From a virus (lineage: Duplodnaviria > Caudoviricetes): DNA of 25,686 bases. The notes below the pieces were generated by a model that had not been told where the DNA came from, ran no database searches, and saw only the letters and a list, made by a program, of their open reading frames with translations. Below, piece by piece: positions 3,144 to 18,889 of this stretch; the first letter of the stretch is position 1, and the number at the start of each line of letters is the position of its first letter. Both the position numbers and the translations under genes were made by a program. The stretch spans positions 1 to 25,686 of IMG/VR virus record IMGVR_UViG_3300008117_003610; one strand, 5' to 3'.

Positions 3144-5377
<2,234 letters not shown>

Positions 5378-5380
5378 CGT

Positions 5381-5539
5381 ATGGAAACTAAAGATATTAT
5401 CGTTACATGCCACACAGATGGGTGCGAGAATAAAGATATTCCAATTCATATCAACGTTCCCAATGACGAAAACCACCGCGTTGTTTGCGGCCCATGCACG
5501 TTAGACATTACCGACAAAAGAGACGACGACACCAAATGA
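5381..5539 (+). CDS. Small Cys-rich protein, 52 aa (METKDIIVTCHTDGCENKDIPIHINVPNDENHRVVCGPCTLDITDKRDDDTK); putative Zn-binding fibre-associated protein or chaperone
   Basis: Translated by hand; missed by the ORF track. ATG is 3 nt after the fibre stop, and its TGA overlaps the next ATG (ATGA 5536-5539). Motif C-x4-C...C-x2-C. Confidence 0.8.
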   Translation: METKDIIVTCHTDGCENKDIPIHINVPNDENHRVVCGPCTLDITDKRDDDTK

Positions 5540-5718
5540 CTAAGAACGACGTCAGCCAGGTCCTTGAGCGCCTTGAGCGCATTGAACGCGACTTGGCGGA
5601 GATCAAGGTTGAGCTCGCGGAGACCCGCGGAGCTTATCGGTTGGCGAAGTTTGTTATCGCACTGCTAGGCGTAAGCGGACTAGGTGGTATAATTGCATGG
5701 ATGAATGGGAATAGATAA
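5536..5718 (+). CDS. Small coiled-coil plus single C-terminal TM protein, 60 aa (holin/lysis-accessory-like)
   Basis: Likely start is ATG 5536 (ATGA overlap) rather than TTG 5485. Coiled coil LERLERIERDLAEIKVELAE, then hydrophobic FVIALLGVSGLGGIIAWM. Directly precedes the lysin with a TAATG overlap. Confidence 0.7.
   Translation: MTKNDVSQVLERLERIERDLAEIKVELAETRGAYRLAKFVIALLGVSGLGGIIAWMNGNR
5684..5695 (+). promoter_or_regulatory. Extended -10 promoter-like motif GTGGTATAATTG upstream of the lysin
   Basis: TGnTATAAT with TATAAT at 5688-5693, about 25 nt before ATG 5718. The identical 12-mer recurs at 25289-25300. Confidence 0.5.
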
Positions 5719-6749
5719 TGAATTTGAAGATTGTAACTCAGACAGATAGCATTGAGAAGGGCGGCTGGATGGACGACTGCGCTCCAGCGACGCTGATGGC
5801 TGCGGCCAACTTCCTTACCGGATCAACGTACACGTCAAAAGATGGGATCAAGTTCTTGGAAAAGGTTGGCAGAAAAGATGTACAGGGGCAGGGTACGCCC
5901 ACGTCACTCCTACAGCTAGTGAAGGCAGCGCCACTTGTTGGCTTAAAGCCTAAGTACGCTAAGTCATGGGATGAGGTGGTTGCAGCTCTTAAGGCCGGCG
6001 CTGTCGTCGGCATTAACGTGCAGCAGGCAAAGGGCTACCCTGCAACCGTACCGATGAGCGTGTGGCACAAGAAGCATCAAAAGAGGAACCCGGGGAAGAC
6101 GTACGGTCACATGACCTGCGCAGCGATGGTTGGAGGGAAGGTACAATGGGCGGACCCAACGATGACTGGCAAAGGAAAAGAGACATATGCAGTTGTGGTC
6201 TCAATTGCGGACCTGAAAGCTATTGCGGCCTCCAAAGGAGACGCACCCCACAAGCGCTGCCTAATCTTCACGGCAGCCCAGAAGAAGTCATCCGCACCTG
6301 CCCCAACTGCGGTTCTCAGCTCACAGATCGTGCCTGTAAGCTCATCTGCTCTTGTGGCTACTACGCTAGCTGCTCAGACTACCTCTAAAGAGCCCGTAAA
6401 GGTGGATTTGCGCCACCAGGAGCGTCCAAAAGACTACCCTAGTGTAAAGACGCCACCCCAGACAATAGACCCCGCATTGGCCCTTAAAGTCGCCCAGGCC
6501 ATTGTCGGTAAGATTGAGGTGGCTAAAGGAGACAAGACGATGAAAGACCAGATCATTGCTGCCGGCTTGGACGCACTCCAGGCCGCCCTCTCCACCGCCA
6601 TTGCGGTGTTCCTTGGGCTTGGCGTAAGCATCTTTGACCTTGATGGCGACGGCGTAAAGGCTGTCGCAGCTTCGGCGATCAGCGCAGGACTTTTGGTCCT
6701 GCAGCGATGGCTGGATGAGGACAATACTCGTTATGGACGAACTCGCTAA
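5718..6749 (+). CDS. Endolysin candidate: C39/papain-like cysteine peptidase fused through a low-complexity linker to a holin-like membrane domain
   Basis: Gln8...Cys21 (DDCAPATLMAA), His131 (YGHMTCA) and Asp146 (WADP) give the C39-like catalytic layout. S/T/A/P-rich linker. The last 69 aa contain two hydrophobic segments and a charged tail. Confidence 0.7.
   Translation: MNLKIVTQTDSIEKGGWMDDCAPATLMAAANFLTGSTYTSKDGIKFLEKVGRKDVQGQGTPTSLLQLVKAAPLVGLKPKYAKSWDEVVAALKAGAVVGINVQQAKGYPATVPMSVWHKKHQKRNPGKTYGHMTCAAMVGGKVQWADPTMTGKGKETYAVVVSIADLKAIAASKGDAPHKRCLIFTAAQKKSSAPAPTAVLSSQIVPVSSSALVATTLAAQTTSKEPVKVDLRHQERPKDYPSVKTPPQTIDPALALKVAQAIVGKIEVAKGDKTMKDQIIAAGLDALQAALSTAIAVFLGLGVSIFDLDGDGVKAVAASAISAGLLVLQRWLDEDNTRYGRTR
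6146..6388 (+). CDS. Overprinted zinc-finger microprotein in the -1 frame of the lysin (ends TCPNCGSQLTDRACKLICSCGYYASCSDYL)
   Basis: Six Cys in the last 29 aa (6299-6385) in a CPxC...CKxxCxCGY..SCSD pattern, resembling CPxCG-type small zinc-finger proteins. Candidate start ATG 6146 with GGAGG at 6132-6136; alternative GTG 6062. The start is uncertain. Confidence 0.55.
   Translation: MGGPNDDWQRKRDICSCGLNCGPESYCGLQRRRTPQALPNLHGSPEEVIRTCPNCGSQLTDRACKLICSCGYYASCSDYL
6540..6749 (+). CDS. Holin-like protein, 69 aa, from an internal in-frame start in the lysin gene
   Basis: SD AAAGGAGA at 6525-6532, 7 nt before in-frame ATG 6540 (codon 275). Product MKDQIIAAGLDALQAALSTAIAVFLGLGVSIFDLDGDGVKAVAASAISAGLLVLQRWLDEDNTRYGRTR has two predicted TM helices and a basic C-terminus. 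Confidence 0.6.
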   Translation: MKDQIIAAGLDALQAALSTAIAVFLGLGVSIFDLDGDGVKAVAASAISAGLLVLQRWLDEDNTRYGRTR

Positions 6750-7233
6750 GGCTCCTGTACTGGCGCAGTGCGCCGCGTGCAGAAGCCCATTTGCTGAGCA
6801 GATCAACGAACGGATGCGCCGTGGCGCTCCGGATACGCAAATCTCTCAGTGGCTTAAGGATAACGATGCATACATCTCTCGCATTACGCTAGGGATGCAC
6901 AAGCGAGAGCATCTTACGGACGAGTTCCAGACTGCAAAGAAGAAAGCAGTTGCAGCGTTTAAGAAACAGCAGGGCACAATTAAGGCAAAGGGAGACCTTG
7001 CACAGCTGGTGCGAGACCAAGTCATCCGGATGGTTGACGACGGATTCCTAATGCCAACGCTTGCAGAAGGTTTGCGAGCTCAGGAAATGATTGACCGTCG
7101 AGTAGAGAAGTCTGCAGACCGAGAGCTTTCGGTTACGTTGGCAGGAATTCTCGGTGGCGGCCCAGTAATCAACATGATTGAGATGGAAGCGGAGGAGATT
7201 ACAGATGGCAAAGACGCCAGCTTGGACGCGTAA
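6733..7233 (+). CDS. terS: Putative terminase small subunit (CxxC...HxxxH Zn-stabilised HTH)
   Basis: Lies upstream of terL. CAAC...INERMRRGAPDTQISQWL...ISRITLGMHKREH suggests an HTH with potential Zn ligands, followed by a helical C-terminus. ATG 6733 follows GAGG at 6717-6720 (the track uses ATG 6715). Confidence 0.55.
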   Translation: MDELAKAPVLAQCAACRSPFAEQINERMRRGAPDTQISQWLKDNDAYISRITLGMHKREHLTDEFQTAKKKAVAAFKKQQGTIKAKGDLAQLVRDQVIRMVDDGFLMPTLAEGLRAQEMIDRRVEKSADRELSVTLAGILGGGPVINMIEMEAEEITDGKDASLDA

Positions 7234-7504
7234 AGAGGGTAAGAACCCAAAGGGCGGCCTTAACGCAAAGGGTCGCGCATCATACAAGGGCGGCACTCTT
7301 AAGCCGCCAGTGAAATCAGGAGACAATCCACGTCGTGCGTCGTTCCTGGCCCGCATGGGTGGCATGCCTGGGCCGGAGCGGGACTCAAAGGGACGGCCCA
7401 CGCGTCTACTCCTCAGCCTTCAGGCTTGGGGGGCTAGCAGTAAAGCAGACGCCAAGAAGAAGGCAGCTGCTATTAGCGCACGGAATAAGAGTAAGAAGTC
7501 TTGA
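7205..7504 (+). CDS. DUF6321-like small basic phage protein (99 aa)
   Basis: MAKTPAWTRKEGKNPKGGLNAKGRASY...RRASFLARM matches my recollection of this phage family. SD GGAGG at 7191-7195 before ATG 7205. Confidence 0.7.
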   Translation: MAKTPAWTRKEGKNPKGGLNAKGRASYKGGTLKPPVKSGDNPRRASFLARMGGMPGPERDSKGRPTRLLLSLQAWGASSKADAKKKAAAISARNKSKKS

Positions 7505-11039: not shown

Positions 11040-13889
11040 ATGGCACGACGAGGTAGGTTCGGACGTTCGGCATCAGGTTCACAGAACCTGTCGTCGCTTG
11101 TCTATTCTCTGCTAAAGGAAGAGCGCAACAACCAAGAAAGCACGATGCTGACTGCGTATAAGAACAATATGATGTCAGGAAGCGCAGCTGGTCTGTTTAC
11201 CTCAGACGGTAGCACCCGTCCTGCCACTGCGGCTAACCTTGTGGAGTGGTACCGAGCTCAGGCTGCGGCAGCCGAATCGGTCGGCGACTCTGCTGGCGCT
11301 GAAAGATTCCGAACGCAAGCCGAAGAGTTCCGTATCCAATCTCTACGGGACATTGAGACCGTTCTTGATAACGCATACAAGGCAGGCAATTCGATTGACC
11401 TTTCCCTAATCGGTGGTTCTGGTTCCGCTAAGATTGACGGGGCAACCTACGAGAAGTGGATGAACACGATTCTCAGCGATTCTTCAATGACTGCATCTGA
11501 CAGGGAGCGCCTGCAGAGCAAGCTCTTTACTGTTTCCTACAACTACGCTGCAGAGAACATGGTAAACGGATTCAATGAGAAGAAGTTTACTGCGAACCAA
11601 CTGGTTAAGTTCTACGACGCCGAACTTGAGCGAGCTCGCAACGCTGGATTGACGCAAACAAGCCAGACGTACAGAGACATTGTCTCGGCACGCGCCGCGG
11701 CGGTTCAGCGCGCAGCAAACGATGCGCAGGCTGCACGGGTTGATACGGTTGAGAAGGGCATTCGCGACGAGACCGACGCCATGGCCGGGGCAATCCAGAG
11801 GTTGATTAAGCCGATCCTGAAGGACTATGTCTCCGCCCCAGACGTCGTAGAAGCCCTGCTCAAGGATATCGGCAAGGGCAATGGTGACGACTGGCTCACT
11901 AGGTTCTCAAATGTTGTCCAGGCTTCAGGTCTTGACTACACTCAACTATTTGATGCAGGCGCAGGGGCTAACGGACTTTCCGTTGAAGACATGCGTTCTA
12001 TTGCGCAAATCTTCGGCGATCTCTCAACTGAGCTTGAAGGTCTTAAGAGGCAGGGCTATGCAGCAGAACTCGGCAAGTGGATTCCTTTTGCTGACGAAAT
12101 GTCAACAAAGTACACAAATGGAGCATTTGCCGCCTCAACTCGACCATTTGTGACATCATTTAATGGTACGTACGCCAATGCAGGAGGCAGCATCGGGGTT
12201 CAGTTTTCTGGCGAGCCAGCGGCAACTAGAAGCGCTCTTCAGGAACTGACTGGAAGCATCGCTGGGGCGGGGTACGAGCAGAATGTCACTGACAGCTCAA
12301 CTGTTGGACAAGTTGGCCTATTTGGTCAAGGGTTTATTACCGGGCTCATCCCAAGCAAGCCTGAGATTAAGACAGTCGGCGATCTTGTTGATTACTTGTC
12401 TAAGAACGGTGCTACTGCGGGCATGGACAAGACAGACATTGCAAATGGTATTGGCGAGTGGCTGTTTGTCATGAAGAACAACCCAAACGCAGCCACTGCA
12501 GGTGCAATCCCAAACGAACTATATAACCTAGGGATTGCAACGACTATGACCATGCTGGACAACGCTATCGGCGGAGCTGGCGGCCTAACGACGGGCGATG
12601 TTCTAAGGCTGCACATTGAGTCAACTTACATCCCTCAGTCTATTAGGGAAACTGTTGACCCTAACGGTAATCCTACCAGGGCTATGGCATACAAGATGGA
12701 CCCTAAGTCCGGTGAGTTCTCCTTCAAGGTGATTCCAAGCGCTAACGTAAGCAGCAAGGACTACGTTATCTCAACTGGCGCTGATGGGGAAATCTTCTAC
12801 ACGCAGTCAATCCCATACAAGGGAGCTGACGGGAACAGTATCCCAATCAGGTTTGTGCCTGTCCCGGGTGGCGGAAATTACGCCGGCGGGAATGACGCGA
12901 ACGACCTAATCGTTATTGACTTTACCGGAGGCTACGGGTCTCCTTACGCCTTTACCGCGGCGCAAATTGAAAGCTTCACTAGCTGGTACTCTTCGCAGCA
13001 AGGATCTACTGGCGGGGATTTCTCTGGGTTTAGGCTTGAGCCAGACGCAGCGAACCCTGGCCTAATGAACTTTACTGCTGGGGCAGATCTGCTAAGGGCG
13101 CTAACAGCAAGTGGTTTCTTCGGCGGAAGGGCCATTAATGATTGGATGAACGCTGCAAATATTAACCCAAGCGATGTTTCCGTTACGAGCATCAACGGCA
13201 CCCTTATTGTCGGGGATAACTTTATTGATGATTACAGAATGGAAATCTTCACCGCAGGGGTACAGGGCACAGACGCAAGAACCGCAGTTGCTAACTGGCT
13301 GAGGACTTCTAAGGGCATTACAGATCCGGGTGGGAAAATCATTAACATGATTCTATCCGGCATGTACCTAACTGCAGAGCAGGGAGATGGCGGTCTCACC
13401 TGGAAGATCTTCAAGGATGGCCAGCAGTGGACCAACAGCACCGATAACACCCAGGATAAACTACCGCCAGCTCCTGAGGGCACAAAGCCAGACCCTAACG
13501 CAGTCGTCTCAAGCGACCCACAGTTTGGGTGGGGCGGTAATCCACAGACTCCGAAGCCTGAACCGATTGGAATGGGCGGTACGGCCGGAGTCAGGGGCAC
13601 TCAGACCAGCAGGTTTATTCCCCCATCTGATCTTATGGATTACACATTTAGGAACATGGCGCCTTCGATCACTCCAGTTGAGCCAGTAACTCCACCGCCT
13701 GGAGGCGCAGCTCCGATTATCGGGCCTGGGCTTAAGCCAGACGGCCCAGAGGTAACCGCACCGGCAGTATCTCCTGGCACTGCACCAGGCGCAGGAACTC
13801 CAGCGCCAAGCATGCGCCCGTTGGCACAGCCAGGCCAGCCAATGCGCAGGGAACTTGGCCCAAATAGGACAGCAATGAGGAGCTTGTAA
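11040..13889 (+). CDS. Large virion protein of unknown function (putative internal/ejection protein)
   Basis: 949 aa with a GGAGG SD. Basic N-terminus (MARRGRFGR), helical N-half, Gly/Asn-rich middle, Pro-rich C-tail. No catalytic motif recognised. Confidence 0.5.
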   Translation: MARRGRFGRSASGSQNLSSLVYSLLKEERNNQESTMLTAYKNNMMSGSAAGLFTSDGSTRPATAANLVEWYRAQAAAAESVGDSAGAERFRTQAEEFRIQSLRDIETVLDNAYKAGNSIDLSLIGGSGSAKIDGATYEKWMNTILSDSSMTASDRERLQSKLFTVSYNYAAENMVNGFNEKKFTANQLVKFYDAELERARNAGLTQTSQTYRDIVSARAAAVQRAANDAQAARVDTVEKGIRDETDAMAGAIQRLIKPILKDYVSAPDVVEALLKDIGKGNGDDWLTRFSNVVQASGLDYTQLFDAGAGANGLSVEDMRSIAQIFGDLSTELEGLKRQGYAAELGKWIPFADEMSTKYTNGAFAASTRPFVTSFNGTYANAGGSIGVQFSGEPAATRSALQELTGSIAGAGYEQNVTDSSTVGQVGLFGQGFITGLIPSKPEIKTVGDLVDYLSKNGATAGMDKTDIANGIGEWLFVMKNNPNAATAGAIPNELYNLGIATTMTMLDNAIGGAGGLTTGDVLRLHIESTYIPQSIRETVDPNGNPTRAMAYKMDPKSGEFSFKVIPSANVSSKDYVISTGADGEIFYTQSIPYKGADGNSIPIRFVPVPGGGNYAGGNDANDLIVIDFTGGYGSPYAFTAAQIESFTSWYSSQQGSTGGDFSGFRLEPDAANPGLMNFTAGADLLRALTASGFFGGRAINDWMNAANINPSDVSVTSINGTLIVGDNFIDDYRMEIFTAGVQGTDARTAVANWLRTSKGITDPGGKIINMILSGMYLTAEQGDGGLTWKIFKDGQQWTNSTDNTQDKLPPAPEGTKPDPNAVVSSDPQFGWGGNPQTPKPEPIGMGGTAGVRGTQTSRFIPPSDLMDYTFRNMAPSITPVEPVTPPPGGAAPIIGPGLKPDGPEVTAPAVSPGTAPGAGTPAPSMRPLAQPGQPMRRELGPNRTAMRSL

Positions 13890-16800
13890 TGGCTAAAATT
13901 GGCGGCAGCATTGTAGACCCAACGCCACCGTACGATACCAGCTCAGATAGCGGCAGGGGGATTAGGTCAAGAGAACTAAACGTCACCCTGACTCCTGAGT
14001 ACGGTATTGATACCGGCCGACTACTTGATGTACCTAGCGCTCTGTCTAGCGGCGGTGATTCCAGTAACCCATTGGACTACGCAGCTTCTTTGCCGTTCCG
14101 CGGCCTAGGAGTTGCCGGTGAGGCTCTTGGCGCCGGAATCAAGGTCGGCGCTGATGTTGTCGGGGCAAGCCCAATCGGGTTTGTCGCAAGCCAAAGGATC
14201 GGCGATGGGACTGTTGGAGACGTAGTTGGGAACATTGGCAAGGTGTTCCTTGATATTCTCGCCAAGCCTGGCGAAATGGTTCAGGACTTTGGTGCAATGC
14301 TGCGAGTCAAGACCGCAAATGGCACTTTGCCGCCAGATATCCAGGCCATGGTTGACAGTGGCGCCTCAGAGGAAAGCATTATTAAATATATGCGAGAGAC
14401 TGGGCGTTCTCTTGCAAACGACAGGACGGTAAACCTTGGTCTGTCCCTTCTTCTTGACCCGCTAAACCTTACACCATTTGCCCTTGGTAAGGTCAACCTG
14501 CTCAGGGGCCTTGGCAAGCTAGGAACAGTAGGCGCAGGAATTGGAATCGGTAGCGCACTCGGACCAGTCGGCGGAGTAGTTGGCGGTCTAGCTGGTTACG
14601 CTGCAGGAGGGCGCGTAGGCCAAAAGCTTGCCCAGATTGGCTGGAAAGCTGGAGCAAAGACTATTTCAAAGGAAAGCGGCCTTGAACTCAGCGCCAAAGC
14701 TAGGTCAATCCAGGCGTTTGAAGCTGCAGGACAAGCCATCCCTGCAGACCTAAACAAAGGTCAGTACCTCATTTACAACGAAATTGACAAGGCCATCTTC
14801 CGTCCTATGCGCAATGTCGCTGAAGGAGTTAAGGAAGGCCTAAAGCTAAAGACTGGCCAACTTCTCCTTAGGGCGTACAGCGCCAATGTCATTGACGACT
14901 TCCACAATGCTGCTAGCCAGGCGTTTGGCCCTGATGCTGCCAAGCTAGGTTTGCGCAGGTTCGCGATTGCAAAGACAAACTCTGTAATCCAGTCTGTGTC
15001 TCGGTCTAGGGTTGGAGAGGTCGAAGCTTCAGTGGACAACGTTGTTGAGAACCTTGACGCCGACCTAAATAAGGCGCTTCAAGACTACGTTGACGCTAGG
15101 TACAAAAACGCCCCAGACAGCACATTTGACAGGCTGACATCTTCATCAGGTGACCAGATCAGCTTCCCTGGTACGACTGATTATGTCATGACTAAGCTTG
15201 CCGACGAAGCGGGCGAGGCTGGGCTTGAAGGCAGATACGGCATGAGCCGAGAAGAAATTACCGCCTACATGCAGGACGCTGCTCCTGGATACGGCCCGCG
15301 AACAGACCCTGGAACTGGCTTGCGAATTGTTGACGAAACGACGACTCGACAGGCAGCTAAGAATCGCCTACGCAACAGGCTTCTACAGGCTCGGATGGAT
15401 ACAGAGCTTGCGGGGTATGATCCAGTCAAGGACGCAGTGCGAGCCGCCTCCACTAACATGGATATGATTGACAACGGCCTTCTGGATGAGATTGCCCTTG
15501 AAGTCAAGAAGGAAACAGAGTACGTAGGCATTGCTGGGCCAGTCAAGGGGGCAACGTCTCAGGCGGCAGCCAAGCGTGCGTACATGTACGCAGAGCGGCT
15601 TGCCACAGAGCTGGCTAACGCTTCATCGGATGACATCTCGCGAGTTGCAGGAAGGCAGCCAGCAACACCAGCTCAGATTCAGGCGATTGCAGAAAACTTC
15701 TTTGGTGGGGCAAGGGTTGAGGGGAATAAGCTCGTCGGAGGAAAATACTTTGACGACGCCGGGACACTGTCCTCTGCTGCCAACATTTCTCGTCAGCTAT
15801 CGCAGAGGTTTGCATTTGCACGGTCCACAACTTACGGATTCAACATCAACCGAATGGGCAACGTCCGGCGCGTTCTTCACGTAGCGTCTCTTTTTGAGAA
15901 GGCGACCCTTCGCGAGAAAGACATTTACGCAAAGGAGATGAGCAAGGCACTTGGGAAGCCAGTGACTGTCCGAGAACTGGAGCAGATGCTTCCAAGGCTT
16001 AAGGAACTTGGCGACCCGTCAACGTACGCCCGCCCAACGTTTGTAAAGACAACCAGTCTTATTGACACCAAGGTAGAGCAGTGGATCGCCATGTTTGACA
16101 ACCTTGGCCAAGAGGGAGGCCTAGTTGCTAGCCAGTACCCTGACGTTTCCCAATCAGTCATTGCTCAGATCAATAGGGCTATGGCCAAGGGCGGTTCAGC
16201 CTCTGCCGCTGAAGCCAAGAGGATTTGGGCGACACAGGCCGCTGGGGCATTTGAAGACGTCGCTGCGCACCACCCAGGGTACAAGTTGTCATCTGGCTCG
16301 GTATCTGCCCAGCAGGTTAAGGACTTCCTGACCGCTGCCAAGAACTCAAGCGCCACCACTGCTCGAGCAACACCTAAAGAGCTTGCTGCGATCAGGGAAG
16401 CTTGGCGTGTGCTTACTGGCAACTCAGATGAGATTGACGGCATTATTGCAGCAGCTAAGCGCGACGGGTACGAGCTTGGCATTGCGCCAGCAGACAACGT
16501 TATCCGAGAGCCTAGATTGATTGCTACTGTTGAGAAGCAGGGTCTTGCTGTGCCAGAAGTGGCCACGATTGACCGTCCGTTTATTGATATCACCTCAGAA
16601 TTTGTTGACGGATTGCCAGACTTTGCTAACCGTCAATCGTACAAGGTTGGCGGTATTCGCGGGGCAATCCAGTCAATGCTGGCGCCAGTTCCGCAATCTC
16701 TGGTATCGTCATCTGCTGCCCAGAGGCTGCAACTTCTCCTACGAAACAGGTTCACGGTTGACGAGATTGATGAGTTTAACCGAAGAATTGTGACTAGGTC

Positions 16801-18889
16801 TGTTGAGAGCCGCGTTGGCACTAGAGGGCTGTCGCAAGACACTCTTGAGGATATCATGGGCGGCATTCTTCAGGAGAAGACAGGCGCAGCTTCTGTGAAG
16901 GCTGCATGGACAGAGCGTATCCAGGCCCTTGAGAAAGCCGGTATTAAGCGTCCAGACATTCAGGGTGACGTAATCAAGGCCTTCAAAGGTGAGTACGATA
17001 TTTCTGGGTATTCTCAGTGGATCAGCGGGTCCATGAAGACCGCTCCAGGTATCGGGAAATTCTTGGCTCAAGTCTCGGAGAATCTATACCCTACGCTAAA
17101 GTATAAAGTAAACCCAATGTTCTTTGCGCAGGAGTTGGTTGAGTCTCCATTCTACGCAGAGTTGCGAGGAATGAACCGGGCAGACATGGAGGCTAAGCTA
17201 AAGGCCGCCAATATTGACCCGCGAGAGATTCGCCAGATGTTTGGAGAGCGAGCTGCTGCCCAGGCTATGCAGCTACACGAGCAGGCGTTCTTCTCGTTCA
17301 CTGCAAGATCCCGAGGGGCGGCTGACTCGGCCCTAAAGGAAGGGCTTACAGTCAGGAACATTATCTCAGAAGATGGTATAATTGCAAAGGGATGGGACTT
17401 TACCGCAAACTTTAAGGAGCAATACCGAGACCTGATGGCGGCTGCCGATCTGGCTCCCAAGTTCCAGCAGTTTGTGCAGAAGAATATGCCACACGAGTAC
17501 ACGGCTCTTCATGCAAAGTATGGCCCAGACGCCTTTGATCAGCTGGTTGGTTGGGCAACAGACTACAAGCGCATGCAGAATGCAAAGTTTGGTGGGTCGG
17601 CAGTAAACACGATGAAAGCTCCAGGATTTGGCTTTGCCGTGAACCCATCCGCCACACAGTTGGCTGTTATTTTGAATGACGTTAGGGATGTCCTTCCGAT
17701 GCACACTGCGGACAAGTTCGGAGCCCTTGTTCAGGGCGGAGCTCGACCGCGCATCATCACGAGCACATTCCGCGCCAAGTTCATCAACGCAGCACAAGAT
17801 GCTGGGTATGACGTGTCTTCAGCCCGTACGGCACTTGACCAACTTGACAACATTGCTCAGAGGTACGCACTTGAGCTCAATCGCGTTGGGCCGAACCTAG
17901 ACTTCCTTCGCAAGGAGTATGATAGTGCCCTAAACACATTTGGAGTTGAGATGCGAGGTCTCACTGCGCAGCTGCAGCTAGCCGACGTTCAGAAGGTTAT
18001 CGTGCAGGAGCTGATGGACGCGTATATCCCAGGGTTCTCATCAACTCCAGACGCCAGCAAGATTGTTGAGGCCATTGCAAACGCAAGAAAGTACGGAGCA
18101 AAGTTTGCTACGATGGGCAACCTAATTGAGCAAATCCGACTTGACTCTGGAGACATCTCAACCCTTGGAGCAGGCGCTCGCGAAACGATCCGAGAGACAG
18201 TAAAGCGATACGCAAACTTTGGTGGTGAACGCGGACAAGTTGTACGATCCACGCAAGACATTCTCACCGACACAACTAGCAACTTGCTTAGGGACCACGC
18301 CGGAGAACAGGCTATGTTTGAAGCAGCAAAGTGGTCATACGCCAAATCTGTTGATGAGATGAACAACGTAAACTACTTCAAAAGCAACCGGTCGTGGTTT
18401 GAGCGGAGCATCAATCATCCGTTCCTTGGCCTGTACCCGTTCTCGTACATGTTCGGAAAGGCTCTCCCAGAGCTTGCTCGGTTCATGTTCTACAAGCCGT
18501 TCGGCATGACCGCGCCCGGCGCTGGCTACGTCGCATATCGCAAGATCTCTGAGTATCTTTCTTACAACGGGTTGCCACCCGGGTGGGAAGTTACACAGGA
18601 GAAGCCAGACTGGCAGTTCCTCCTAACGCAGTTAATCCCTGCCGTTCCTGAGGACATGACCGTGGTTACGCCGAAGTGGTTCCGATCTGCGGTCTCAACG
18701 ATCTCGCGCCAAGGCTACGACCAGTACAAGGCAACAGACCTTCTTGGTAATGCTACGGACTGGGTTGGAAGCACTGGCCTTGGAGGGTTCTTACAGCTTG
18801 CGGCTAAGTCCGGAGGAGAGCTAACTAGTGGGGCAGCTGACTTCCTAACTGGCAAGTTTAATACCGACGTAGGTACATTCAGAAAATAA
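13889..18889 (+). CDS. Very large virion protein (putative internal/ejection protein)
   Basis: 1666 aa, Ala-rich and helical. N-terminal LLLDPLNLTP and Gly-zipper LGTVGAGIGIGSALGPVGGVVGGLAGYAAGG; aromatic C-terminal segment NHPFLGLYPFSYMF. The layout resembles large podovirus ejection proteins. TAATG coupling with the previous gene. Confidence 0.55.
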   Translation: MAKIGGSIVDPTPPYDTSSDSGRGIRSRELNVTLTPEYGIDTGRLLDVPSALSSGGDSSNPLDYAASLPFRGLGVAGEALGAGIKVGADVVGASPIGFVASQRIGDGTVGDVVGNIGKVFLDILAKPGEMVQDFGAMLRVKTANGTLPPDIQAMVDSGASEESIIKYMRETGRSLANDRTVNLGLSLLLDPLNLTPFALGKVNLLRGLGKLGTVGAGIGIGSALGPVGGVVGGLAGYAAGGRVGQKLAQIGWKAGAKTISKESGLELSAKARSIQAFEAAGQAIPADLNKGQYLIYNEIDKAIFRPMRNVAEGVKEGLKLKTGQLLLRAYSANVIDDFHNAASQAFGPDAAKLGLRRFAIAKTNSVIQSVSRSRVGEVEASVDNVVENLDADLNKALQDYVDARYKNAPDSTFDRLTSSSGDQISFPGTTDYVMTKLADEAGEAGLEGRYGMSREEITAYMQDAAPGYGPRTDPGTGLRIVDETTTRQAAKNRLRNRLLQARMDTELAGYDPVKDAVRAASTNMDMIDNGLLDEIALEVKKETEYVGIAGPVKGATSQAAAKRAYMYAERLATELANASSDDISRVAGRQPATPAQIQAIAENFFGGARVEGNKLVGGKYFDDAGTLSSAANISRQLSQRFAFARSTTYGFNINRMGNVRRVLHVASLFEKATLREKDIYAKEMSKALGKPVTVRELEQMLPRLKELGDPSTYARPTFVKTTSLIDTKVEQWIAMFDNLGQEGGLVASQYPDVSQSVIAQINRAMAKGGSASAAEAKRIWATQAAGAFEDVAAHHPGYKLSSGSVSAQQVKDFLTAAKNSSATTARATPKELAAIREAWRVLTGNSDEIDGIIAAAKRDGYELGIAPADNVIREPRLIATVEKQGLAVPEVATIDRPFIDITSEFVDGLPDFANRQSYKVGGIRGAIQSMLAPVPQSLVSSSAAQRLQLLLRNRFTVDEIDEFNRRIVTRSVESRVGTRGLSQDTLEDIMGGILQEKTGAASVKAAWTERIQALEKAGIKRPDIQGDVIKAFKGEYDISGYSQWISGSMKTAPGIGKFLAQVSENLYPTLKYKVNPMFFAQELVESPFYAELRGMNRADMEAKLKAANIDPREIRQMFGERAAAQAMQLHEQAFFSFTARSRGAADSALKEGLTVRNIISEDGIIAKGWDFTANFKEQYRDLMAAADLAPKFQQFVQKNMPHEYTALHAKYGPDAFDQLVGWATDYKRMQNAKFGGSAVNTMKAPGFGFAVNPSATQLAVILNDVRDVLPMHTADKFGALVQGGARPRIITSTFRAKFINAAQDAGYDVSSARTALDQLDNIAQRYALELNRVGPNLDFLRKEYDSALNTFGVEMRGLTAQLQLADVQKVIVQELMDAYIPGFSSTPDASKIVEAIANARKYGAKFATMGNLIEQIRLDSGDISTLGAGARETIRETVKRYANFGGERGQVVRSTQDILTDTTSNLLRDHAGEQAMFEAAKWSYAKSVDEMNNVNYFKSNRSWFERSINHPFLGLYPFSYMFGKALPELARFMFYKPFGMTAPGAGYVAYRKISEYLSYNGLPPGWEVTQEKPDWQFLLTQLIPAVPEDMTVVTPKWFRSAVSTISRQGYDQYKATDLLGNATDWVGSTGLGGFLQLAAKSGGELTSGAADFLTGKFNTDVGTFRK

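Follow-up and report, generated by a model that had tools for sequence, protein, structure and literature searches.

A conserved gene for a predicted zinc-ribbon protein, nested in a likely phage lysin-holin fusion and likely captured from a free-standing HVO_2523-like family

Does the linker of a phage lysin conceal a second gene, and how would such a gene have come to lie there? The question is raised by a window of 25,686 nucleotides (the whole stretch of DNA analyzed), a linear virus record of 25.7 kb with a completeness estimate of 57%, whose plus strand carries tail-fibre, terminase, portal, capsid, and adaptor genes. Between a collagen-like tail fibre and the packaging genes lies a frame 0 open reading frame (ORF) of 343 amino acids (aa) (positions 5718 to 6749, plus strand). 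A first-pass annotation had described a six-cysteine microprotein in the -1 frame of its linker, with GGAGG and nine bases before an ATG at 6146, and on re-reading all of these sequence statements were correct. The nested frame reads ...EEVIRTCPNCGSQLTDRACKLICSCGYYASCSDYL, with its first Cys at 6299 and a TAA at 6386 to 6388, and the lysin frame crosses it as a Ser/Ala/Thr-rich linker. The nested ORF (6146 to 6388, plus strand) would encode 80 aa, a leader followed by the six-Cys finger.

The enclosing ORF is a peptidase-linker-holin-like fusion, likely a membrane-anchored lysin as predicted, and its frame is open to the end in 26/26 distinct full-length relatives. The N-terminal part (5718 to 6275, plus strand) is a papain/C39-like cysteine peptidase domain with putative catalytic residues C21, H131, and D146. 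Its AF2 model (pLDDT 87.6) places the last strand at residues 181 to 186, and a Foldseek search with the model returned the pseudomurein endoisopeptidase PeiR as the top match (E value of 3e-6), followed by phytochelatin synthase, C39, and staphopain. Among relatives, C21 and H131 are invariant and D146 is nearly so. Fold and conserved Cys-His-Asp residues are those of papain-like/C39-like peptidases such as PeiR, but the window protein is only 13 to 19% identical to these (TM of about 0.55) and is fused to a hydrophobic tail. Searches of Pfam, PHROGs, and NCBIfam with the 343-aa protein yielded no match, and a tblastn search for the lysin in 50,697 annotated phage records was negative as well. 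We infer cell-wall hydrolysis, as by an endolysin, from the fold and the gene position; the labels "lysin" and "holin" draw on these two and on a weak Atlas lead described below. Among other peptidase relatives, those at L025 to L046, L050, and L058 stop near ...ARKK and are tail-less, with unrelated genes downstream, and still others end in a short basic extension.

The C-terminal part of the fusion is a holin-like hydrophobic tail of 69 aa (6540 to 6749, plus strand) that has its own in-frame AGGAG and start codon (ATG in 25 sequences, GTG in 1), with a Shine-Dalgarno (SD) duplex of -8.0 to -8.4 in 26/26. An Atlas search with the tail returned viral 70-aa clusters, among which an r1t-holin cluster at rank 30 of 30 (score of 0.91, 41% of members) is a lead only; the tail had no Pfam match to the r1t-type holins (PF16945), and one of its segments exceeded the hydropathy threshold. 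Between finger and tail, the rest of the linker (6389 to 6539, plus strand) codes in frame 0 only, that frame being open in 26/26 sequences and the other frames in 0/26. The linker 3' of the finger stop measures 82, 91, 142, or 151 nucleotides, differing by whole codons. Compared with the window, five relatives (L004, L008, L020, L023, and L054) pair linker length variants with different peptidase N-terminal types, a mixture that suggests recombination near the finger.

Fusions of this kind are common. When long peptidase homologues (346 to 2000 aa) were searched, the best 120 of 660 all terminated in a holin-like tail and 1 had the finger shadow; most nested lysins (320 to 343 aa) are missing from this set because the range began at 346 aa. 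The C39-like peptidase, linker, and holin-like tail are likewise fused, without Pfam annotation, in P0151 to P0270 and at L153, L165, L182, L184, L185, L187, and L055 to L057, and an SD sequence and ATG stand before or near the tail in 8/8 loci of the fusion family that were checked. Peptidase-holin fusions thus form a large family that carries no library annotation.

Conservation of the nested frame was followed through these relatives. A peptidase query recovered 58 viral loci, and at 26 of the 58 the finger was present with frame and register unchanged. After two more scans the nested set stood at 74 rows; many of these repeated contigs, and 28 distinct sequences were obtained from them. 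Rows dropped in the analysis were L145, which is truncated, L148 to L151 and L125, which fall outside the strict motif, and L140 and L144, which end before the holin. The comparison set of finger-less loci comprised 23 distinct ones. All 28 nested sequences have the ATG 51 codons upstream of the first Cys, an open frame of 80 codons, and all six finger Cys; these sequences are related and partly mosaic, and pooled counts therefore overstate their independence. Statistics on them are column-level counts. By chance, a single sequence would be open across the leader with a probability of 4 to 7% and, in the lysin frame across the finger, of 16%.

Substitution patterns differ sharply between the two frames along the overlap. 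Over positions 6272 to 6386, the finger frame had a pooled pN/pS of 0.22 and the lysin frame one of 1.10, and 10/38 amino acid columns varied in the finger frame compared with 26/38 in the lysin frame. Over positions 6146 to 6272 the relation is the reverse, with a pooled pN/pS of 1.98 in the -1 frame and 0.17 in the peptidase frame. The pattern was repeated on 17 sequences. Constraint moves from one frame to the other at about 6272, where the last predicted peptidase strand ends (residue 186). Synonymous columns of the lysin frame are invariant at 21/27 positions under the finger, compared with 6/104 upstream, 3/33 under the leader, and 3/58 in the holin-like part. These counts bear out the earlier proposal that constraint acts on the finger frame and that the linker is a by-product of it.

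The lysin frame also remains open across the finger, in 25/25 distinct nested sequences and with stops in 0/77 vulnerable codons; in stand-alone phage fingers, the corresponding shifted frame is open in 3/13 and has stops in 19/50 vulnerable codons. GC-rich bacterial copies of the finger, which have no lysin, have an open shifted frame in 11/17, and the openness of the lysin frame, taken alone, is a weaker test for that reason. Both frames are thus conserved open and each is under frame-specific purifying selection, as in a nested overlapping gene. By these comparisons of sequence, the window holds a real, conserved nested gene whose translation is predicted.

Where would this translation begin? 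The SD-like GGAGG (6132 to 6136, plus strand) lies in a variable peptidase loop, nine bases before the ATG at 6146. Its duplex in the window is -9.8 kcal/mol, compared with -4.2 for the lysin's own SD sequence, and the median is -7.4 in the 28 nested sequences and -3.9 at the equivalent place in the 23 finger-less ones. We then considered stop-vulnerable columns, that is, synonymous peptidase positions where T creates a stop in the -1 frame. T occurs at 0/10 such columns below the ATG, compared with 52/58 elsewhere (Fisher P value of 3e-8), and 9 of the 10 do vary, among A, C, and G. The Gln codon that creates the nested ATG is CAA in 28/28 sequences, compared with 32/225 at ten other Gln columns. 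Among finger-less relatives, the ATG is found in 2/23 and the open frame in 2/23, and in 12/25 sequences the nearest upstream -1 stop lies 2 to 5 codons above the ATG. Translation of the nested gene likely begins at a start of its own, ATG 6146, as the first-pass annotation had suggested. The start of the longest ORF, GTG 6062, was considered and rejected: its SD sequence is weak, and its frame closes before 6146 in 14/25 relatives.

The exact coincidence of the constraint switch with the end of the peptidase domain might also suggest that the finger is produced by a -1 ribosomal frameshift near that end or initiated at a near-cognate codon at 6257, where 28/28 sequences have an NTG codon and the product would be 43 aa, near stand-alone lengths. 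Either route would leave unexplained the openness of the -1 frame from 6146 and the fixation of CAA. No strict slippery heptamer is common to more than 8/28 sequences, and local RNA folds are unremarkable (z between -0.7 and +1.0); the SD sequence at 6257 is weak (median of -2.8), and its NTG is forced by a conserved KRC. We regard this explanation as very improbable and retain ATG 6146 as the start.

The segment between this start and the finger core is a leader of about 42 aa (6146 to 6271, plus strand), overprinted on the C-terminal part of the peptidase. Its sequence drifts while its frame is kept open, and it is predicted to be disordered (pLDDT of 51 to 56). Three leader cysteines, Cys15, Cys21, and Cys27 (window positions 6188 to 6226, -1 frame), are present in 27, 27, and 25 of 28 sequences, respectively, and all are missing in L085, the most divergent member; they may reflect shared ancestry or a second metal site.

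The finger core (6272 to 6388, plus strand; C52, C55, C64, C68, C70, and C76), whose lysin-frame shadow forms the first part of the linker, belongs to a widespread family. A phmmer search with the last 38 aa returned 350 cluster representatives at E values of ≤0.001 (best, 7e-13), which supplies the homologues of the Cys pattern that the first-pass annotation had called for; among the best 150 of the 350, 145 are ≤130 aa and 129 match the strict six-Cys pattern. A hidden Markov model (HMM) built from the 145 short representatives was run on 6,756 six-frame segments (the window and 38 finger-less loci), and the window finger scored 78 bits, with the runner-up segment at 13 bits. The core is 72% identical over 39 aa to a stand-alone phage gene. 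Stand-alone finger genes were located at 22 viral and 17 bacterial loci, the latter from Myxococcota or delta-proteobacterial bins, and one relative comes, by its annotation, from a Ca. Limnocylindrales genome; these bins and this genome indicate the range of the family, not the phage host.

These results also bear on a finger that arose de novo, or by chance, from an Ala/Val-rich linker whose -1 frame is naturally Cys-rich. The -1 shadows of the finger-less linkers at L153, L165, and L182 are indeed long, open, and Cys-rich. However, no segment other than the window finger exceeded 13 bits with the family HMM, Cys-rich shadows included, and the identity to the stand-alone gene extends to non-Cys residues, so that the probability of such an origin is close to negligible. 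A chance pattern, or convergence from a Cys-rich shadow, was excluded by the phmmer and HMM tests.

As to which family this is, the first-pass annotation had named the HVO_2523-like zinc-finger proteins. An Atlas feature search placed HVO_2523-like (PF28087) clusters first, with top clusters at 0.93 to 0.94 and 181/256 features at 0.94. The NF041914 model matched the nested product with 20.5 bits (E value of 3e-4; 19.3 bits in a second run), which does not reach its equivalog cut-off of 60 bits, and it matched 56/115 aligned relatives at E values of ≤0.001. The finger contains CPNCG and CSCG, and its six Cys are present at ≥90% in the 115 aligned rows; HVO_2523-like/CPxCG microproteins are short, single-domain proteins with a CPxCG knuckle and a further Cys pair, as here. 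We take C52, C55, C68, and C70 to be the probable Zn site, from general knowledge of zinc ribbons. AF2 modeled the core as a confident small beta domain (pLDDT of 85 to 91), and fold searches yielded weak matches, none of them significant (best Foldseek row with an E value of 0.48 and an rmsd of 1.1 over 27 columns; VIA Z of ≤2.4). PDB sequence searches returned spurious or weak rows only, and beyond weak zinc-ribbon and HVO_2523 rows nothing was returned by Pfam, PHROGs, and NCBIfam searches with the 80-aa and 108-aa ORFs. The nested product is a predicted zinc-ribbon protein of the HVO_2523-like family. It shares with the microproteins of this family (NF041914; PF28087) a short protein ending in CPxCG-x7-CKLxC-x-CGY-x2-C, but differs in being encoded by a phage gene that lies entirely within another, its leader overprinting a peptidase; the family thereby gains a phage context. 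Searching the 50,697 annotated phage records for the finger with tblastn gave no result. A word-index protein search with the 43-aa finger was also negative, whereas six-frame searches did find the finger. A conserved microprotein can therefore hide wholly inside a called gene, where a protein-collection search missed it.

How did the finger enter the lysin? De novo overprinting is the usual explanation for overlapping genes, and in many cases it is difficult to show what came first. The finger core does not have the narrower distribution, relative to the frame it overlaps, that such an origin implies. Since the finger family stands alone elsewhere and the fusion is widespread without the finger, it is likely that an existing linker took up a foreign gene. 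Finger-less fusions have tails 87 to 94% identical to those of the nested lysins, the same internal start, and an Ala/Pro/Val-rich linker at the finger's place, and the existence of such close relatives makes the fusion likely older than the finger. Similarity to stand-alone fingers at the DNA level sets in about 9 codons upstream of the first Cys, and the shadow linker was found only together with the finger. Nested fingers form one group (SH-aLRT of 90) in a tree of 37 columns that names no donor. In the peptidase tree, 12/13 finger-bearing peptidases fall in a clade supported at 100/100; L085 joins outside it, and monophyly was neither rejected (p-AU of 0.205) nor established by the tree.

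In the order of events that we favor, recombination would have set the finger core just behind the last peptidase strand, replacing the start of the Ala/Pro/Val-rich linker. The insert would have been tolerated because the shifted frame of the finger, already mostly Ala, Thr, and Ser in stand-alone genes, fits a linker. The core would then have lost its own start and acquired a new one 42 codons upstream, from the Gln-Trp codons of the peptidase, so that each gene now bears a segment overprinted on the other. Three proteins would come from one late mRNA: the fusion (343 aa), the holin-like protein (69 aa), and the finger (80 aa). Taken as a whole, this account, with an 80-codon zinc-ribbon gene nested in a lysin-holin fusion, its own start likely at 6146, and likely a single capture from the free-standing HVO_2523-like family into the linker, has our considerable confidence. 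The original description of a microprotein overprinted on the lysin holds for the leader, which does overprint the peptidase, and is reversed for the core, which is the older and more widely distributed frame.

The same description had the peptidase-holin fusion reading through an intervening gene. The lysin frame does cross the entire finger, and with an internal SD sequence and ATG before the holin-like part the three products proposed from this locus are predicted here as well. In its historical form, this idea would have adjacent peptidase, finger, and holin genes joined across the finger when the peptidase stop was lost. At L048, L049, and L053 the peptidase ends in ...KK-stop near the junction, with a separate small hydrophobic gene downstream, and the holin-like part of the fusion retains its own SD sequence and ATG, both as such an origin would have it. 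However, the closest tails come from finger-less fusions with the same pre-holin helix and internal start, a finger was found at 0/32 non-nested peptidase loci within the DNA available for each, and the finger start sits within the peptidase rather than between genes. Such a read-through origin is quite improbable, the fusion likely predating the finger. Because the nested state, stand-alone fingers, and finger-less fusions are all extant, capture into the linker is directly testable. It would constitute a route to overlapping genes in which an old gene enters a linker and the partners each gain an overprinted segment.

Known overlaps in lysis genes and linkers resemble this arrangement in part. 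In lambda Rz/Rz1, according to the portion available of PMC6139136, the embedded Rz1 overlaps the linker DNA of Rz, and -1 cases occur; the likeness is that of a small out-of-frame gene within a lysis gene, overlapping a flexible linker. Here, in contrast, the gene lies within a peptidase-holin fusion and its product looks like a soluble Cys protein, not a lipoprotein partner. Direct reading of the sequences showed a polar, charged leader in which no stretch is hydrophobic, unlike an embedded o-spanin (Rz1), which has an N-terminal hydrophobic signal with a lipobox. In that study, embedded and separated members were never found within one spanin family (PMC6139136), whereas the finger occurs both nested and stand-alone. 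The movement protein of apple stem grooving virus overlaps an RdRp-CP linker, and the available part of the source on such overlaps (PMC8227390) gives a phylogenetic genealogy criterion for them. Linker overlaps and phiX174 E in D share with the window an asymmetric evolution in which the linker frame absorbs change, and that part treats overlaps as one ancestral and one de novo frame (PMC8227390); in the window overlap, older stand-alone relatives exist for each of the two genes, and which frame is the ancestral one changes partway along. Ms6 lysA, in the extract available of PMC3111421, contains an in-frame embedded gene (384/241) and is similar in that an internal SD sequence and start are predicted to yield a second product, but in the window it is the holin-like tail that would be made in frame from an internal start, and another frame would supply a third product. 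A holin-capsid-protein fusion has been proposed (PMC9671378), and overlapping endolysin genes are described (PMC12294143), each as given in the accessible part of the source. In the open literature covered (titles and abstract openings), neither a zinc finger nested in a lysin nor this peptidase-holin fusion family was found.

For the family, deletion of HVO_2523 in Haloferax affects swarming, biofilm, growth on glycerol, and motility proteins, with no molecular target named in the available portions of PMC6562870 and PMC12949519. Our leading view, held at about even odds and based on analogy with the family, is that the finger would be a small metal-binding interaction module directed, late in infection, at a protein or nucleic acid of the host, as its relatives would be elsewhere, with no lysis-specific task. 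Among the 22 stand-alone viral finger loci, the 12 inspected had ParB-like, sugar-modifying, and head-gene neighbors, recognized by eye, and no peptidase-holin cassette beside the finger.

The first-pass annotation had proposed that the finger could regulate lysis or packaging, and these neighborhoods do not favor it. A nested finger co-opted to regulate lysis timing or packaging, via the peptidase, the holin, or the adjoining terminase-like protein, would fit the retention of the nesting across a clade with peptidases down to about 67% identity and the position of the finger on the same predicted transcript, directly 5' of the packaging genes. Yet stand-alone fingers at the viral loci inspected are not next to a lysis cassette, the finger is missing from most peptidase-holin fusions, and its conserved residues are those of the entire family, so that we consider this role rather unlikely. 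Slightly less likely still is a version in which the captured host-type finger, encoded on the mRNA shared by the membrane-tethered peptidase and its holin, would act as a lysis timer, with metal or redox sensing through the six family Cys and Cys15, Cys21, and Cys27 gating lysis; if it were true, lysin linkers generally would be landing pads for entire foreign microprotein genes.

The surroundings of the locus were scanned as well. An Rfam search over positions 5300 to 7300 yielded no match, a tRNA scan gave no result, and promoter and terminator scans scored near shuffle level. Contigs from RNA libraries (4/18 runs) were of low depth and covered the gene partially, one of them spanning 6151 to 6412; because such contigs reveal neither strand nor transcription, they were not counted as expression. 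A 52-aa ORF 3' of the tail fibre (5381 to 5539), with no library match, has CxxxxC and CxxC motifs. Two very large ORFs (11040 to 13889 and 13889 to 18889; 949 and 1666 aa), with no Pfam or PHROGs match, lie between the portal and capsid genes. The next gene after the fusion (6733 to 7233) begins 17 nucleotides inside the holin stop region, with its ATG kept in 25/26; its product has no library match and contains a CxxC...HxxxH motif, and its position suggests a small terminase subunit. A DUF6321/phrog_4689 protein (7178 to 7504) is encoded between the putative small and large terminase genes.
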